Shown here: positions 42,006 through 48,149 of the stretch, piece by piece
Position numbering within the stretch: the stretch's first letter is position 1
Layout: each line of letters starts with the position of its first letter
Source of the DNA: an uncultured Gemmatimonadales bacterium
GTDB lineage: Bacteria > Gemmatimonadota > Gemmatimonadetes > Gemmatimonadales > GWC2-71-9
Direction: 5' to 3'
DNA: 64,000 bases
NCBI GenBank assembly: GCA_963771275.1
Contig: CAVYSW010000009.1
Location: 160,001 to 224,000, forward strand
Program-made: the position numbers and the translations under genes
The notes under the pieces: generated by a model
Seen by the model: the letters and a program-made list of their open reading frames with translations, nothing else
Told to the model about the DNA's origin: nothing
Database searches by the model: none

Positions 42006-44393
42006 TCAGCGCGTGCCCTCCGTCCGTTCGCCGTTCACGCGCCCGGCCGATGCCAGCATGATCCCGCCCGCCACGCCGTAGGCTGCCGCGGCGCCGGCGA
42101 ACAGCGCCCCCGAGCCGACCTCGAGTCCCACGATCGCGGCCAGCGGGGCCGCCACCACCGACGCGAAGCCGTTCACCGCCCAGGCCCACGCGGTCCGTCC
42201 CCCATCGGGGCCGACAAGCGCGCGAAGACCGAGGGGAAACGGCGTCCCCATCAGCACACCGAGTGGCGCGAGGACCAGCGCCGCGGCGAGCGCGCGCGCC
42301 GGGAGCGGCCAGGGTTCCGCGAGATGCACCACCGCGAGCAGGAACACGGCGCAGGCCGTGAGCAGGAGGGCGAGCCCGCCGAGCGCGCCGATCGCGCGGA
42401 CCGGCCGCCAGCGATCCGACCACCAGCTGCCGATCCCCGAGCACACCAGCAGGACGGCCAGCACCGACGCCACTGCGTACACCGGGTGGCCGAGGAGGAG
42501 GGTCAGCTGCTGGATCGCCGCCAGCTCCGCCGCGAGATAGGCGAGTCCGATCGCCCCGAAGTACCCGAGCACGGGTGGCAGCGCCACGCCGACTGCGCGA
42601 TGCGCACCGACCAGGACGGGCACCAGCAGCAGCAGCGCAGCCAGGACGAGACTCTGCGCCAGGGTCGCGACCAGGGCCAGGTACCCCAGCTCGGCGAACG
42701 GCAGCCACTCGCCGGCCCCGTGGGTGGCGAACGCGCGCAGCGCCCCGAGCTGCAGGAAGTGATGGGGATACGGGCGCGCGTCGGTCGCCGGCGCCACGCG
42801 GAGTGGATAGGCCTCGGCGAACCGGCGGGCGCCGTCCGCCGACGCCGTGGCCGCGCGTGCCGCCTCGAACAGGACGGGGAACTCGAGGAAGTTGAACCGG
42901 CTTTCGGGCGTCTCGAGCCCGGGCCGCCAGTCGACATCGAACCAACGCGCATCGGCCCAGCGCGTGAGCGCAGCGATCGCGGCGTCGGTGAACCCCGACG
43001 GCCGCACCAGCGTCGTCACCGTCCCCCAGCTCCGCACCACCATGAGTCCGCGCGCGAGCGCCGCCGGATCGCGTCGGCGCAGCGCCTCCGCGGCCGTGAG
43101 GATCACGCGGACCTCCCCCCGGGGCGGCAGGGCGAGCCAGCTCGTGATGGCGAGCACGCCGCCGGGTGCAAGCCGGTCGAGCAGACGCTCGTAGGCCTCG
43201 ACCGTGTGCAGGAAATCCTCGTTGAGCGAATGGACGCCGGCGGCAACCCCGCCGATGCCTCCCGTAGGCCCGAGCGTGATGAGATCGTACCGTTCGCGCG
43301 TCTGCGCGGTGAACGCGCGCGCGCCACCGATCACCCATCGGACGCCCCGTCCGTCGCGGGGACCCGGGAGCCGGGCACGCACCAGGCGTGCGAGCCCGGG
43401 GTTGAGCTCGACGACGGTCACCTCCGCCCCATGATCCAGCGCGGCGGGGACATCCACGCCGGCCGCGCCGCTCAGCGCGAGCACGCGTTCCCGACCCCCG
43501 AGCGCATACGGCAGGCCCGCCGGCAGCCAATCGAGCAGCGGCGTCGTGGCGGGGTCCCAATCCGTCACCGCACCCACCAGCTCGGCATCGAGGAAGATCC
43601 CGGTTTGCGCCGGGAACGCATCCCCGTACGCCAGCGACAGCCCGGGCGCGAAGCGCAGGGCCGGCGCGCGGACACCCACCACCCAGCCGAGCGGGCTGGT
43701 CATCTCGACCGTGCGCTCGGCGCCGGGGTACGCCACCGCCTGCGCAAGCGCCTTGTACGGCAGGACATGAAGCCGCCACGGCGGGTGAGCCCACGCGAGC
43801 GCGCCCAGCAGCACGGCGAGCATGGCGGCGCTCAGGCGCGGGCGCGAACGGACCGCCGCACTCGCCAACACGGCGCCGGCGCCCGCGACCACGGCCGGCA
43901 TGGCGAGCGCCCGGACCGGCGTCATGATCGCCAGCGCGCCGACCGCCGCCACGGCACCCGCCCCGGCCCCGAGGAAGCTCGCGCCGTACAGCGCGCCCGC
44001 GCGCGCCGGTGCCGCTGTGAGCGCCAGCAGCACCGTGAGGGCCCCCAGACCGAAGGGCAGCCCGAGCAGCAGGTACTCGAGCGCCAGCCTCGGCCACTGT
44101 CCGAGCTGCCAGGCCAGTTGGGTCGGATCCACCGGCACGAGACCCACCAGCGCCGGCACGGCCACGAGCGCGAGCGCCGCGAGGATGGCCGACCATGAGA
44201 GCCAGCGCCGCGCTGCGTCTCGCCCGGGTCGGGCCAGGGCCACGATCGTCCCGCTCGCGCCCCCACCCAGCATTGCCACGCCGATCGCCATCGACGCGAA
44301 ATGGTGGAACTGCTCGATGGCGAACACCCGGACGAGGAGGATCTGGTACGCCAGGGTGGCCGCGGCGACGCAGCCCACCGCCAGCGCCGTCAC
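42006..44393 (-). CDS. Membrane protein with central spermidine-synthase-like SAM-binding domain
   Basis: N- and C-terminal TM bundles; VTVVELNP, YDLITL, LAPGGVL, PATDARPY, WAWAVNG; GTG overlaps the pcm stop. Confidence 0.8.
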   Translation of the reverse strand: MTALAVGCVAAATLAYQILLVRVFAIEQFHHFASMAIGVAMLGGGASGTIVALARPGRDAARRWLSWSAILAALALVAVPALVGLVPVDPTQLAWQLGQWPRLALEYLLLGLPFGLGALTVLLALTAAPARAGALYGASFLGAGAGAVAAVGALAIMTPVRALAMPAVVAGAGAVLASAAVRSRPRLSAAMLAVLLGALAWAHPPWRLHVLPYKALAQAVAYPGAERTVEMTSPLGWVVGVRAPALRFAPGLSLAYGDAFPAQTGIFLDAELVGAVTDWDPATTPLLDWLPAGLPYALGGRERVLALSGAAGVDVPAALDHGAEVTVVELNPGLARLVRARLPGPRDGRGVRWVIGGARAFTAQTRERYDLITLGPTGGIGGVAAGVHSLNEDFLHTVEAYERLLDRLAPGGVLAITSWLALPPRGEVRVILTAAEALRRRDPAALARGLMVVRSWGTVTTLVRPSGFTDAAIAALTRWADARWFDVDWRPGLETPESRFNFLEFPVLFEAARAATASADGARRFAEAYPLRVAPATDARPYPHHFLQLGALRAFATHGAGEWLPFAELGYLALVATLAQSLVLAALLLLVPVLVGAHRAVGVALPPVLGYFGAIGLAYLAAELAAIQQLTLLLGHPVYAVASVLAVLLVCSGIGSWWSDRWRPVRAIGALGGLALLLTACAVFLLAVVHLAEPWPLPARALAAALVLAPLGVLMGTPFPLGLRALVGPDGGRTAWAWAVNGFASVVAAPLAAIVGLEVGSGALFAGAAAAYGVAGGIMLASAGRVNGERTEGTR

Positions 44394-45094
44394 CGCAGTC
44401 CTTCGAGCATCGGGACGAAGCGGACCGGAAGCAGCGCCCGCGTCGTCACCCGGCCCCGCTGGTCCTTCTCCACGAGAATCAGGTTCTGCACGCCGTACGC
44501 GCTCCCCACGGGAATCACCAAGCGACCGCCGGTCTTGAGCTGCGTCACGAGAGCCGGCGGGATGTAGCCCGCGGCGGCCGTCACGATCACGGCGTCGAAC
44601 GGCGCCGCCTCCGCCCATCCGAAGTGCCCGTCCCCGTGACGTACGGTCACGCGCCGGTACCCCAGTCGCCGCAGGCGCTCGGCCGCGCTGCCGGCAAGTG
44701 CCTCGAAGATCTCGATGGTGTACACCTCGCATCCGGTCGCCGCGAGCACCGCGGCCTGGTACCCGGAGCCGGTGCCGACCTCGAGCACCTTCATCCCAGG
44801 TACCGGTCGCAGCACCTCGGTCATGTAGGCCACGATGTACGGCTGGGAGATCGTCTGCCCGAGACCGATCGGCAGCGGGTGATCGCCGTAGGCCATGTCA
44901 CGCGCGTCGGCGGGGACGAACTCGTGACGCGGGACCGCGCGCAGGGCGGCGAGCGTCGCGGAGTCGCGCACACCCTCGCGGGCGATGAGGTCCACCATGG
45001 CCTGGCGGCGGGCGCGTTGGGTGGCCTGATCCTGCCCCGGGAGACGGGACGTGACCGCGACGACCTCAAGCAGCGCCAGTAATGCGAGACGCAT
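44390..45094 (-). CDS. pcm: Protein-L-isoaspartate O-methyltransferase with signal-peptide-like N-terminus
   Basis: VPRHEFVP, GQTISQPYIVA, VLEVGTGSGYQAA, APFDAVIVTAA, VRFVPM. Confidence 0.93.
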   Translation of the reverse strand: MRLALLALLEVVAVTSRLPGQDQATQRARRQAMVDLIAREGVRDSATLAALRAVPRHEFVPADARDMAYGDHPLPIGLGQTISQPYIVAYMTEVLRPVPGMKVLEVGTGSGYQAAVLAATGCEVYTIEIFEALAGSAAERLRRLGYRRVTVRHGDGHFGWAEAAPFDAVIVTAAAGYIPPALVTQLKTGGRLVIPVGSAYGVQNLILVEKDQRGRVTTRALLPVRFVPMLEGLR

Positions 45095-45250: not shown

Positions 45251-47122
45251 TCACAGCGAGCCCTCCAATGCCGCGTTCACCATCGCCGCTCTCGATCCGT
45301 AGCGCGCCAGCAGCTCAGCCGCCACGCCGTGGGGGACGTTGGTGAGCGCGTAGAGCAGATGGACCCCTTGCACCGCCTCCCGCCGCCGCTCGATAGCGAT
45401 CGCGGTCGCCGACTCGATCGCCGCGGCGGCCTCGGGATGGAGGGGTAGCCGCGGCCGGTCGACGTGCTCCCCGATGGAACGCACCCGGTCCATGACGTCG
45501 GCGCGGAACCGGTCGAGGTCCATCCTGCTCACCCTGGTGAAGAACGTGAGCGGCGACCCGCCAGCTGCCAAGAGACCGAAGAGCAGATTCTCGGGCCGAA
45601 CATCGGCTTGCCCGAGGCGAGCCGCGTCGTCGAGCGCCCGCTCCAGGGCTTCCTGGAGCTTCGGGTCGGGCCGGGGCGGATCCGGCGGGCGCGCGTCGCG
45701 CTCGGCGAGGATTGCGTCGGGGTCCATGCCGCACAGCTCCACGATACGCCGGCGTCCGGGATGGTCCGGCGCGCTCTCGAACAGCTCGCGGGCGATCTCA
45801 CGCGCGGACGATCGGGGGTGCCACCCCCGCAGGTCGAGATCGGCGCCGCAGCGTACCAGGCACTCGACCACCGGCGCCCAGGCGTTCCCGACCGCCACCT
45901 GGATCACCGGATTGCCATACACCAGGCTGTCCAGCGGGAAGCCGCGCGACGCCATGTACTCGAGCACGGCCGTGCGGCCGTTGACCATGGCGATGACGAA
46001 GGCCTCCATGAGGACCTCTTCGTCGTCGGCATCCCCATGCTGCGGCCCGAAGCCCGGCGGCCCAACGGCGTCGAAGTCCGGACGGAGCCGGCACGCCACG
46101 GGCTTGGGCTTGCCCTTGGCATCGAGTGAGCGGCGCACCCCCTCGACGTCGCCGAGCCCGGCGGAGATCCACAACGCCCCGCGCGGCGTGGCGCGCGCGG
46201 CCACGAGGTCCACCGCCTCGCCGTTCCAGTACAAGATCAGTGCATGCTCCAGGACTGGAATGCCGTTGGGCGCCACCCAGTTGGGATCCGCGCCGCGGTC
46301 GAGCAGCCAGCGTACCTTCTCGGCTTTCATGTGGATGCGACCGCAGAGTTGCCGGTTGAGCTCGAGATGGAGATCGAGTCCCTGCGCGGCGAGCCAATCC
46401 ATGATCGGACGCGTCGCCGCCCGGCCGAGGATCCGCTCGTGATGGATGGCGGTTCTGAGCAGGCTGCCCCCTTTGGCAACCTCATAGTCCGTTGGGTGCA
46501 GCAGCTCGGGATGCGCCTGGACCACGCGCTCGAGCGCCTCCAGGTCGCCCGCTTCCATGGCCTGGCTGGCGAGTGCGAGGGGATGCACCTCCCAATCGTC
46601 CACCTGCCTGGGACCTTCCGCCTCACAGCGCTCGAGCAGCACCTCCCAGCTGGGATAGCCGTAGCCTCGCGCCACCGCGAGACGCGCGTCGTCCTCGGTG
46701 ACCACGGACACGAACACGTCGTCCAGGCGCATCCCATAGAACTGCGGCACGTACGCGGCGAGCTGGCGCGCCGCGACGATCCGCCAGTTGCGATGCCGGG
46801 CCAGCAGTCCGCGGACGCTCTCGTCGAGAAAGTCACGGGGGAGATACTGGACCGATCCGTGGTTCAAGCGCTGGCGATGGACGTCGCCGAAGTAACGGAC
46901 CAGCCTGGGCCAGCTCGTGAATCCATACTCGCGCGCGATGACGAGCTGCGCGTCGGCGAGGCGGATCCGCGCCGGCGCGGACGCGTCGATCGCCGGATGT
47001 CGCGCGCGGGCGCGGGCGCGCGCCTCGGAGTCGCCGGCACGCAGTCGGCGGAGCAGCGCCTTGGCCTCTTTCTTCTCGAACTCGAGGTTGGGCTGGGGCG
47101 GGAGCGGGCGCAATGCGGACAT
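45251..47122 (-). CDS. AREYGFxSW helical domain (x2) plus ankyrin-like repeats plus C-terminal double Clp-N domain
   Basis: LPPQPNLEFEKKEAKALL...AQLVIAREYGFTSW; second ARGYGYPSW; LLDRGADPN, LVRCGADLD; ENLLFGLL and HLLYAL Clp-N motifs; GAAAGGGG RBS. Confidence 0.8.
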   Translation of the reverse strand: MSALRPLPPQPNLEFEKKEAKALLRRLRAGDSEARARARARHPAIDASAPARIRLADAQLVIAREYGFTSWPRLVRYFGDVHRQRLNHGSVQYLPRDFLDESVRGLLARHRNWRIVAARQLAAYVPQFYGMRLDDVFVSVVTEDDARLAVARGYGYPSWEVLLERCEAEGPRQVDDWEVHPLALASQAMEAGDLEALERVVQAHPELLHPTDYEVAKGGSLLRTAIHHERILGRAATRPIMDWLAAQGLDLHLELNRQLCGRIHMKAEKVRWLLDRGADPNWVAPNGIPVLEHALILYWNGEAVDLVAARATPRGALWISAGLGDVEGVRRSLDAKGKPKPVACRLRPDFDAVGPPGFGPQHGDADDEEVLMEAFVIAMVNGRTAVLEYMASRGFPLDSLVYGNPVIQVAVGNAWAPVVECLVRCGADLDLRGWHPRSSAREIARELFESAPDHPGRRRIVELCGMDPDAILAERDARPPDPPRPDPKLQEALERALDDAARLGQADVRPENLLFGLLAAGGSPLTFFTRVSRMDLDRFRADVMDRVRSIGEHVDRPRLPLHPEAAAAIESATAIAIERRREAVQGVHLLYALTNVPHGVAAELLARYGSRAAMVNAALEGSL

Positions 47123-47138
47123 GAGACCCCTTTCGCAG

Positions 47139-47310
47139 CGGCCCGTGTCCGCCTGGTGGGCCCGAAAAGAGGGTGACGCGATCGAGCAGGTGGAGCGACG
47201 ACGTCGGATGGGACCATCCCTTTCCGCGGACCGGTAGCGCTCCGACGGCGCTTCCCCAAGACTCGCGGGCGCCGGGGATGCCGTCAAGTGGGCACCCAGT
47301 GGCACGGCGC
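47139..47310 (-). ncRNA. Candidate structured leader RNA
   Basis: Nested complementary segments CCGTG/CACGG, CTGG/CCAG, GCCC/GGGC, GACGGC/GCCGTC, CCCC/GGGG, GAAAGGG/CCCTCTTTTC directly upstream of the RBS. Confidence 0.55.
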
Positions 47311-47393
47311 TTCGTGAGAGCGCCTTTCGCTTCACCGGCGGCTCTTCCCGCGCGCGGCTAGCTCGGGGCCCCTCCCTCTTTGTACCTTGCGCC

Positions 47394-48149
47394 ATGCGCG
47401 CGTTTCCCCCGGCCGTCCTCGGCCTCGCACTCACCGTCCCCTCCGTCGTCCTCGCCCAGGGCAGTCCGCGCGACATCGTGGACCAAGTGGACCGCCTGAT
47501 GCGCGGCCATTCGAGCCGCGCGACGGTCACGATGGAGATCGTCACCGCGCACTGGCAGCGCACCATGGAGCTCCGCGTCTGGTCGCTCGGCACCCGCTAC
47601 GCGCTGATCCGCATCCTGTCCCCCGCCAAGGACGCGGGGACCGCCACCCTCAAGGCCGGCAACGAGATCTGGAACTACCTGCCGCGCGTCGATCGGACGA
47701 TCAAGGTGCCGTCCTCGCTCATGGGCGCGGCGTGGATGGGCTCCCACTTCACCAACGACGACCTCGTGAAGGAGAGCCGCATCATCGACGACTACGATAT
47801 CGCGATCGGCTACGAGGGACCGCGTGACGGCGTGAATGTGTGGGAGTTCGTGCTCACCCCCAAGCCCGACGCGGCGGTGGTGTGGGGCCGGATCGAGGAG
47901 CAGGTGCGGCAGGCGGACCTCATGCCCACCTGGGCCAAGTACTATGACGAGCGCGGCCGGCTGGCCCGCTCGATCACGTTCGGCGCCTACCGGCGGATGG
48001 GTGGCCGCCTGGTACCGGCGGTGATGACCGTGGTGCCGACCGACAAACCGGAAGAGCGCACCGTGCTGCGCTACACCGATCTGGCCTTCGACGTGGGCCT
48101 CGATCCGGCCTTCTTCTCGCTCCGGCAGCTGCGGAGCGACGGGCGCTGA
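47394..48149 (+). CDS. LolA-like outer-membrane lipoprotein-sorting protein
   Basis: Signal peptide; SPAKDAGTATLK, WNYLP, WMGSHFTNDDL, FFSLRQL. Confidence 0.85.
   Translation: MRAFPPAVLGLALTVPSVVLAQGSPRDIVDQVDRLMRGHSSRATVTMEIVTAHWQRTMELRVWSLGTRYALIRILSPAKDAGTATLKAGNEIWNYLPRVDRTIKVPSSLMGAAWMGSHFTNDDLVKESRIIDDYDIAIGYEGPRDGVNVWEFVLTPKPDAAVVWGRIEEQVRQADLMPTWAKYYDERGRLARSITFGAYRRMGGRLVPAVMTVVPTDKPEERTVLRYTDLAFDVGLDPAFFSLRQLRSDGR

Follow-up and report, generated by a model that had tools for sequence, protein, structure and literature searches.

A predicted double-pseudoknotted leader RNA enclosing the Shine-Dalgarno sequence of ankyrin-repeat genes: a candidate riboswitch-type element of Gemmatimonadales and other soil bacteria

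The ZTP riboswitch (the pfl motif, RF01750) is a cis-acting element of the 5' leader in which a 5' subdomain and a 3' hairpin are separated by a variable linker and joined by a long-range, conserved, G/C-rich pseudoknot. The SAM-II, preQ1-II, and NAD+-II/pnuC riboswitches are small H-type pseudoknots that hold the Shine-Dalgarno (SD) sequence inside the ligand pocket, and the ribosomal-protein leaders and T4 gene 32 are systems in which proteins repress their own translation. Here, we describe a leader RNA of an uncultured Gemmatimonadales bacterium that resembles each of these systems in part. It lies on the minus strand of a 64,000-nucleotide (nt) stretch (assembly GCA_963771275.1, contig CAVYSW010000009.1, positions 160,001 to 224,000), hereafter the window, within the 271 nt that separate two divergent genes, and it precedes a gene for a 623-residue protein with an N-terminal AREYGFxSW domain, ankyrin repeats, and a Clp_N match. 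Comparison of homologous loci shows a covarying leader with two predicted pseudoknots and a 3' helix containing the SD sequence, tightly linked to one gene family. By the same comparison, the leader belongs to a family of cis-acting regulatory RNAs that is not yet catalogued, and we put the probability that it is a riboswitch-type translational switch of the ankyrin/Clp_N gene at about one half.

Rfam 15 (4227 models, including ZTP RF01750, SAM-II RF00521, and preQ1-II RF01054) was searched at three levels of stringency. At the gathering thresholds, the whole window yields three transfer RNAs (tRNAs) only. At E ≤ 10, positions 46900-47600 give one chance match (E 0.6), on the other strand and within a coding region, and at E ≤ 1, twenty other copies of the leader (37.6 kb) give one tRNA only. 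A preliminary description of the locus, made from the sequence alone, had named no riboswitch that the leader resembles, and the Rfam scan has the same outcome. Literature searches found no description linking ankyrin genes with a riboswitch or a structured RNA, although survey supplements could list the motif under another name, and nothing that joins "ankyrin repeat", "riboswitch", and "Acidobacteria". The accessible part of a 2024 survey of 50 genomes (PMC11109978) contains none of the terms "ankyrin", "Gemmatimon", or "Acidobacteri".

The fold was obtained by comparative analysis and is listed with its coordinates in Table 1. It consists of two hairpins (P1 and P2), a mini-stem of two base pairs (bp) that presents the hexamer GUCCGC, a long 3' hairpin (P4), and two long-range contacts. 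The motif shared by the family reads, in order, GCGC-loop-GCGC, AUCC-N-GUCCGCGG-RAA-GGGN...NCCC-A-CCUG, a variable stretch, CCUUCUUUC, GCCYG...GCGGAC...CRGGC, GAAAGGAG, and AUG. The hexamer sits in a small loop because the mini-stem encloses N-GUCCGC, and its predicted pairing with GCGGAC in the loop of P4b is a kissing complex.

The main counts for this fold come from an alignment (A6) of 74 rows, 73 of them distinct, that were selected by protein similarity only. They were aligned with a covariance model, R1, that was built from 63 pattern-selected sequences and whose structure contains P1, P2, and P4b only; because both pseudoknots and the mini-stem were left out of this model, their counts are not fitted. 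Over the whole fold, 95.4% of 1896 cells pair, compared with 82.6% in column shuffles (none of 500 reaches the observed value) and 30-43% in slid controls, and 20 of the 26 pairs show changes on both sides among the distinct rows. The expectation of the preliminary description that homologues share a covarying structure upstream is thus borne out, and the pattern-selected set (A3, 63 sequences) agrees, with 92.8% versus 82.6%. Among the individual helices, P1 pairs in 95.5% of cells, with double changes at three of its four pairs, P2 in 100% (four of four), and P4b in 94.5% (five of five).

The two long-range contacts and the mini-stem differ in how freely they vary. In pseudoknot A, the 3' part of the P1 loop pairs with the bases that follow the conserved A after P2; 85.4% of cells are paired and all five counted pairs have double changes. 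Its middle pair (alignment columns 16-61) is AU in 40 rows, GC in 17, CG in 8, GU in 3, UA in 1, and otherwise in 4, and the pattern-selected set concurs. The mini-stem is paired in 100% of cells: at pair 28-39, 66 rows have C-G, the other 7 have A-U, and none is unpaired, and at pair 29-38, C-G (70 rows) alternates with U-G (3 rows). The kiss GUCCGC/GCGGAC, at 99.8% paired, is unchanged in 68 of the 73 distinct rows; the five that differ comprise two compensatory rows (L179, GUUCGC/GCGAAC; L189, AUCCGC/GCGGAU), two G-U rows, and one mismatch (L197). A helix that is free to covary and stays near-invariant, together with conserved unpaired purines, suggests a recognition surface. An extension of the kiss into its flanking bases was rejected, the pairing being inconsistent by eye on the pattern-selected alignment. 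The A-U version of the mini-stem pair arises from the replacement of AUCC by CAAC or CCAC and of GCGGAAA by GCGU(G/A)AA in a subgroup of seven copies (L160, L162, L165, L169, L171, L174, and L196), of which all but L171 also have G-U-type P1 stems; the subgroup probably reflects one lineage event.

The preliminary description was right that a structured minus-strand leader ends at the ribosome-binding site of the gene at 47122..45251. Its drawing of that leader, a junction of about 170 nt closed by CCGUG..GCCC with GGGC..CACGG and bearing two arms, can hardly be correct. All the complementary strings that it quoted are present in the window. The real element spans 47252..47123, and it starts at a promoter that lies within the RNA as drawn. 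On the 5' side, the closing stem uses CCGUGCCACUGGGUGCCC (47307..47290), a sequence that precedes the conserved -35 box and lacks conservation even in L025 and L149, the nearest relatives. The string CACURGGUGCCC, which the preliminary description gave as conserved, falls in the same non-conserved DNA upstream of the promoter. The 3' arm, GGGCCCACCAGGCGGACACGG (47163..47143), is in fact the covarying P4b hairpin with its GCGGAC loop, and the arm GACGGC..CCCC/GGGG..GCCGUC spans the -35 box and P1. The remaining arm, GAAAGGG with CCCUCUUUUC (also given as GAAAGGG with CUCUUUUC), is paired in 84.9% of cells, which equals the column-shuffle expectation of 84.8% (266 of 500 shuffles reach it); it has a single compensatory cell, and slid controls give 61-74%. 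This arm may be an alternative pairing that releases the SD sequence. The folding energy does not favor the drawing either: the single-sequence minimum free energy (MFE) of 47123-47320 is -84.6 kcal/mol, compared with -85.8 +/- 4.6 kcal/mol for shuffles (z = 0.26; 112 of 200 shuffles at least as stable). The MFE structure differs both from the drawing and from the comparative fold, which it fails to recover; single-sequence folding is uninformative here because the pseudoknots are invisible to it.

The association of the RNA with the AREYGFxSW domain was followed from both sides. A protein search of 40 related genomes gave eight further loci that encode the N-terminal domain, which makes nine with that of the window, and the shared motif is found upstream in seven of them. 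L014, which is among the seven, belongs to an unpublished genome (G020); this locus enters the seven-of-nine count and is excluded from every other. The two loci that lack the motif (L017 and L019) encode a divergent ARSY..NW domain. An exact scan for the RNA pattern in 185,579 species genomes returned at least 120 stretches, of which 80 were fetched. The domain, recognized by our own hidden Markov model (HMM; E < 0.01), follows directly in 54 of these 80, and the other 26 are mostly chance matches within the coding sequences of high-GC actinomycetes. Three copies among them look genuine: one precedes a decayed gene, in which the start of the domain is followed by two stop codons (L084), one has an extra hairpin inserted before the SD sequence and no open reading frame (ORF; L036), and one, from a member of the Phycisphaeraceae (L093), precedes a 283-residue ankyrin protein in which the domain is barely recognizable (E 0.035 to residues 11-80).

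A search free of any RNA pattern used the peptide pattern ARE[YS]GFxSW, taken from an alignment (A4) of 26 N-terminal domains and scanned on the metagenome collection. It returned at least 600 stretches with 579 confirmed relatives, of which the best 80 were retained. The covariance model matches 79 of these best 80 protein-selected loci (E ≤ 2.5e-4), just upstream of the gene and on its strand; six of the matches are truncated where a contig ends. The one locus without a match (L159) has a leader that is short and unstructured. In the opposite direction, the domain gene begins at the 3' end of the model in 30 of the 30 best matches of R1 (one per genome, window included). The tight module of leader and LPxxPxLE...AREYGFxSW-domain gene envisaged in the preliminary description therefore holds from protein to RNA (79/80) as well as from RNA to protein (30/30). 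Ankyrin repeats are present in all 17 complete downstream ORFs of these 30 loci, and the products in 20 wider neighborhoods, by crude ORF calling, are ankyrin proteins, ankyrin proteins with leucine-rich repeats (LRR; 1167 residues), or LRR proteins only. The "variable C-terminal effectors" once proposed thus reduce to ankyrin with Clp_N in the window, ankyrin with LRR, and LRR only, which are protein-binding repeats and not enzymes.

The distribution of the element is broad. By record title, true copies occur in Acidobacteriota, Actinomycetota, Gemmatimonadota, Verrucomicrobiota, Myxococcota, and alpha-, beta-, and gamma-proteobacteria, and named strains of Burkholderia, Jiangella, and Streptomyces are among the carriers. 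The RNA is carried by 54 of 151 genomes of the window's order, as detected by R1, with up to five copies per genome. The N-terminal domain family comprises 3727 representative clusters at E ≤ 1e-3, and copies of the RNA probably number in the thousands. Some copies are clustered, as opposite-strand pairs 3.6 and 5.6 kb apart and as three copies within 27 kb (G134:C96:132534-136437; G164:C14:1331-7164; G133:C6:237944-264631), which suggests local expansion of the gene family together with its leader.

The 3' hairpin joins the conserved fold to the start of translation. P4b is flanked by two complementary strands, of which the 3' one contains the SD sequence and in some members extends to the start codon, and the resulting anti-SD/SD helix is continuous with P4b and 9-15 bp long. 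The mean strand-pair energy is -15.1 kcal/mol for cognate anti-SD and SD strands, -10.5 kcal/mol for non-cognate strands, and -7.5 kcal/mol for shuffled 5' strands, so that cognate strands beat non-cognate ones by 4.6 kcal/mol. In the folds of 62 of the 73 members, pairing takes in four or more of the five SD core bases, and the P4 segments of the 73 members average -22.9 kcal/mol. In the window, ACCCUCUUUUCG (47174..47163) pairs with CGAAAGGGGU, the P4 segment has -19.0 kcal/mol, and the SD sequence is paired. Since the terminator scan found none following the leader, control is placed at translation. A linker hairpin (P3) that would occupy the anti-SD strand can be drawn for 34 of the 73 members. 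Being weak, with mean values of -4.3 kcal/mol and z -0.41, confined to these members, and absent in the window, it was rejected as a general anti-anti-SD hairpin that would define the family. No well-defined or consistent competing structure was found across the family. Control of the CsrA type, through GGA motifs in loop L4 and the SD sequence, was also rejected: the GGA of L4 pairs with GUCCGC, with compensatory changes, and the change in L179 removes the GGA.

The boundaries of the leader are set by the model and by the promoter. In the window, R1 has a single match, at 47117-47258 (-) with 86.2 bits and E 1.2e-17, which is also its sole match in the whole genome (G000). Upstream of P1, family-wide conservation is limited to TTGA at -38..-34 (28 of 72) and TANNNT at -17..-12 (47 of 72). 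Because such boxes stand at fixed distances before P1, the transcript most likely starts near 47252. The -10-like box of the window, GAGTCT, fits TANNNT at A2 and T6 only, and a consensus promoter scan called no promoter at the leader because this box is weak.

We favor a riboswitch-type sensor because the leader is complex in its tertiary structure, nearly invariant at the junction and the kiss, and widely distributed. As in riboswitches, a conserved, covarying, structured domain in the 5' leader is coupled to an expression platform. In the mechanism that we propose, P1, the mini-stem, and P2 make up a compact 5' domain, which is fastened by pseudoknot A and is predicted to dock onto the tip of the long 3' hairpin through the six-bp kiss GUCCGC/GCGGAC. 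The outer helix of this hairpin, which pairs the anti-SD strand with the SD sequence, would gate translation initiation, and the docked, fully folded state would block the ribosome-binding site. The balance between closed and open states would respond to a signal, for which the most likely candidate is a small molecule or an ion that binds where the junction and the kiss are nearly invariant. Once the RNA is open, GG-RAA-GGG, a purine run in the 5' domain, may take the anti-SD strand instead. The closed state is taken as the ground state because the P4a helix is long. These steps would make the element an OFF switch, which is our reading, although the direction is not settled. The wider proposal, somewhat more tentative than the switch itself, is that the family amounts to a new riboswitch class, spread over six or more phyla of soil bacteria, with a double-pseudoknot aptamer for a small molecule or ion that switches an ankyrin/LRR/Clp_N scaffold family; if true, it would offer a handle on an unrecognized signalling or stress pathway.

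Several observations weigh against the riboswitch interpretation. With its length and its own stability, the SD helix would form without a ligand, and the competing structures are weak, since the P3 hairpin occurs in 34 of 73 members and the pairing of GG-RAA-GGG with the anti-SD strand shows no covariation. The regulated genes are repeat scaffolds of unknown role that point to no ligand, and with crude ORF calling, no neighboring Pfam family occurs in more than 2 of the 20 neighborhoods examined. The start site of the window's leader is a prediction from the promoter boxes. In addition, the strict tie to one protein domain would fit equally well with autoregulation, in which the N-terminal domain or the whole protein binds the leader, perhaps at the kiss, locks the SD helix, and represses translation of its own and its paralogues' messages. 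To this second explanation we give real but clearly lower weight. The near one-to-one coupling of RNA and domain (79/80 and 30/30, and 7/9 in close genomes) speaks for it, as do the retention of the same invariant loops in genomes with up to five copies, which would allow cross-regulation, the mildly basic domain (mean net charge +4.2, 88% of 162 positive), and the default-closed SD helix, which forms without a ligand. The coupling is not decisive, however, because the yjdF, nadA, and pnuC riboswitches are reported to be associated with a single gene family as well; moreover, the L093 RNA precedes an ankyrin protein in which the domain is barely recognizable, and divergent domain genes (L017, L019, and L159) lack the RNA. 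In a bolder variant of the wider proposal above, the four-helix N-terminal domain is a candidate new RNA-binding domain that would form a ribonucleoprotein with the invariant kissing loops.

Two further explanations are less likely. That the leader is a structural element independent of any signal, which keeps translation low and constitutive, protects the 5' end from RNase, or responds to a physical cue such as temperature, is unlikely: the hairpin at the inferred 5' end, the thermodynamic dominance of the SD helix, and the lack of a consistent alternative structure are what one would expect of it, but two tertiary contacts and near-invariant loops across at least six phyla exceed the needs of dampening or protection. 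As for temperature, a thermometer has a weak, imperfect SD helix that melts near growth temperature, and P4, computed at -19 to -23 kcal/mol (-19.0 in the window, -22.9 on average), is far too stable for that. That the leader is a ribozyme that cleaves itself, or a small RNA acting on its own that just happens to precede these genes, is more improbable still. Nested long-range pairings and invariant nucleotides do recall small ribozymes, but no Rfam ribozyme family is matched, no terminator follows the leader, and the RNA is tied to the messenger by its 3' strand, which is the SD sequence of the downstream gene, and by a model that ends at the start codon in 30 of 30 loci.

The protein encoded downstream begins with MSALRPLPPQPNLEFEKKEAKALL...AQLVIAREYGFTSWPRLV and has weak Pfam matches to Ank_3 (6.7e-6) and, at the C-terminus, to Clp_N (1.5e-4), with no Pfam family on its first ~100 residues. 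Its order of domains is the AREYGFxSW domain, a degenerate second copy of the signature (ARGYGYPSW), ankyrin repeats, and Clp_N. The second copy, LAVARGYGYPSWEVLL, is at residues ~145-160 (window ~46690-46640, -), and many relatives also match the query domain in two stretches, so the AREYGFxSW "domain" may be a repeat unit. AlphaFold2 predicts four helices for the N-terminal domain from a 26-row alignment (pLDDT 83, pTM 0.67), and the net charge given above is the mean over 162 domains of at least 60 residues among 192 aligned rows; helices and charge are as compatible with RNA binding as with its absence. Searches for relatives of the domain gave a best E of 5.3 with Foldseek against the PDB, a best Z of 4.3 in an exhaustive VIA-align structure search, and only "hypothetical protein" clusters in an atlas search. 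The closest orthologue (L013/L025, G004:C26:1940-3804), at 76-77% identity, is split into two matches that lie in different frames and adjoin at query residue 253/254, which is a frameshift or an assembly error in a draft genome.

Table 1. Coordinates of the leader RNA, its structural parts, its promoter boxes, and the flanking genes in the window.
Feature	Position	Strand	Details
Leader RNA, ~130 nt	47123..47252	-	inferred start site to the base before AUG
-35 box TTGACG	47282..47287	-	starts at -36 relative to P1
-10-like box GAGTCT	47259..47264	-	17-nt spacer after the -35 box; starts at -13
P1 hairpin	47237..47251	-	GCGC 47251..47248, loop L1 CGUCGGA 47247..47241, GCGC 47240..47237
Mini-stem	47224..47234	-	CC 47234..47233 / GG 47225..47224 around G + GUCCGC (47231..47226), loop L1b
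P2 hairpin GGGA-UGG-UCCC	47210..47220	-	100% of cells pair
Pseudoknot A 3' strand UCCGACG	47202..47208	-	predicted to form 7 bp in the window, with all of loop L1 (CGUCGGA)
Variable linker (P3 region)	47175..47201	-	length and sequence vary
P4a 5' strand, anti-SD ACCCUCUUUUCG	47163..47174	-	pairs with 47126..47139
P4b hairpin	47140..47162	-	GGCCC 47162..47158 / GGGCC 47144..47140, loop L4 ACCAGGCGGACAC
Pseudoknot B (loop-loop kiss)	GCGGAC 47152..47147 with GUCCGC 47231..47226	-	six base pairs
P4a 3' strand GCUGCGAAAGGGGU	47126..47139	-	contains the SD sequence GAAAGGGG (47134..47127)
Regulated gene, 623 aa	45251..47122	-	ATG 47122..47120; ORF and translation
N-terminal AREYGFxSW domain	~aa 1-80, 47122..46883	-	within the 623-aa gene
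LolA_like lipoprotein-sorting gene	47394..48149	+	Pfam 1.5e-44

The surroundings of the leader add a few observations. A PCMT gene (protein-L-isoaspartate O-methyltransferase, 3.3e-60) at 44390-45094 (-) follows the ankyrin/Clp_N gene after 156 nt on the same strand, for which reason co-transcription is possible; PCMT is absent from all 20 related neighborhoods examined. A terminator-like hairpin, GGCGCTTCGTGAGAGCGCC followed by TTTCGCTTCA, is located at 47306-47324 (+), between the two divergent genes and a short way upstream of the -35 box of the leader; it lies outside the conserved RNA and is the sole match of the terminator scan, with 0.3 expected by chance. The leader and the N-terminal domain are each single-copy in the window's genome, in which no repeats of either were found beyond their own locus; the CGACGUCGUCGC stretch has many weak matches of 15-30 nt in that genome (E 0.003 to 6). 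In soil metatranscriptome data, one run contains 6% of the sampled words, and two 151-nt contigs map to 46901-47008, which is coding, at less than 90% identity; they derive from a relative and are uninformative on the leader.

Complex and widespread orphan leader RNAs are now rare finds, and this one has two covarying tertiary contacts and near-invariant loops. Its targets are bacterial ankyrin/LRR repeat proteins and not enzymes or transporters, and its trigger, once found, would yield both a new sensor RNA and the first functional clue to this protein family. The fold is also a reliable marker of the true start codon and the promoter of these genes in high-GC genomes.

Among the described systems, the ZTP riboswitch is similar in its bipartite plan, with a variable linker and a long-range G/C-rich pseudoknot, and in acting in cis from the 5' leader. 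The present leader differs in having no Rfam match, in using a loop-loop kiss and a second pseudoknot, in sequestering the SD sequence with no terminator, and in preceding ankyrin scaffold genes rather than purine or folate genes. With SAM-II, preQ1-II, and NAD+-II/pnuC, it shares a ribosome-binding site within the conserved fold and control at the level of translation, whereas its SD sequence lies in a helix of 9-15 bp below a hairpin that a separate 5' domain is predicted to dock, and again Rfam gives no match, a result that excludes membership in either group. Guanidine-II (mini-ykkC) and purine riboswitches likewise have two hairpin loops that kiss as their conserved core, but here the kiss would consist of six Watson-Crick pairs between loops ~75-90 nt apart, with an extra pseudoknot and unrelated loop sequences. 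The autogenous operators, which include ribosomal-protein leaders such as the rpsO pseudoknot and the T4 gene 32 leader, also offer a pseudoknotted leader before the gene of one protein family with involvement of the SD sequence; in contrast to these, the product of the present gene has no known role in RNA binding and is a candidate binder only.

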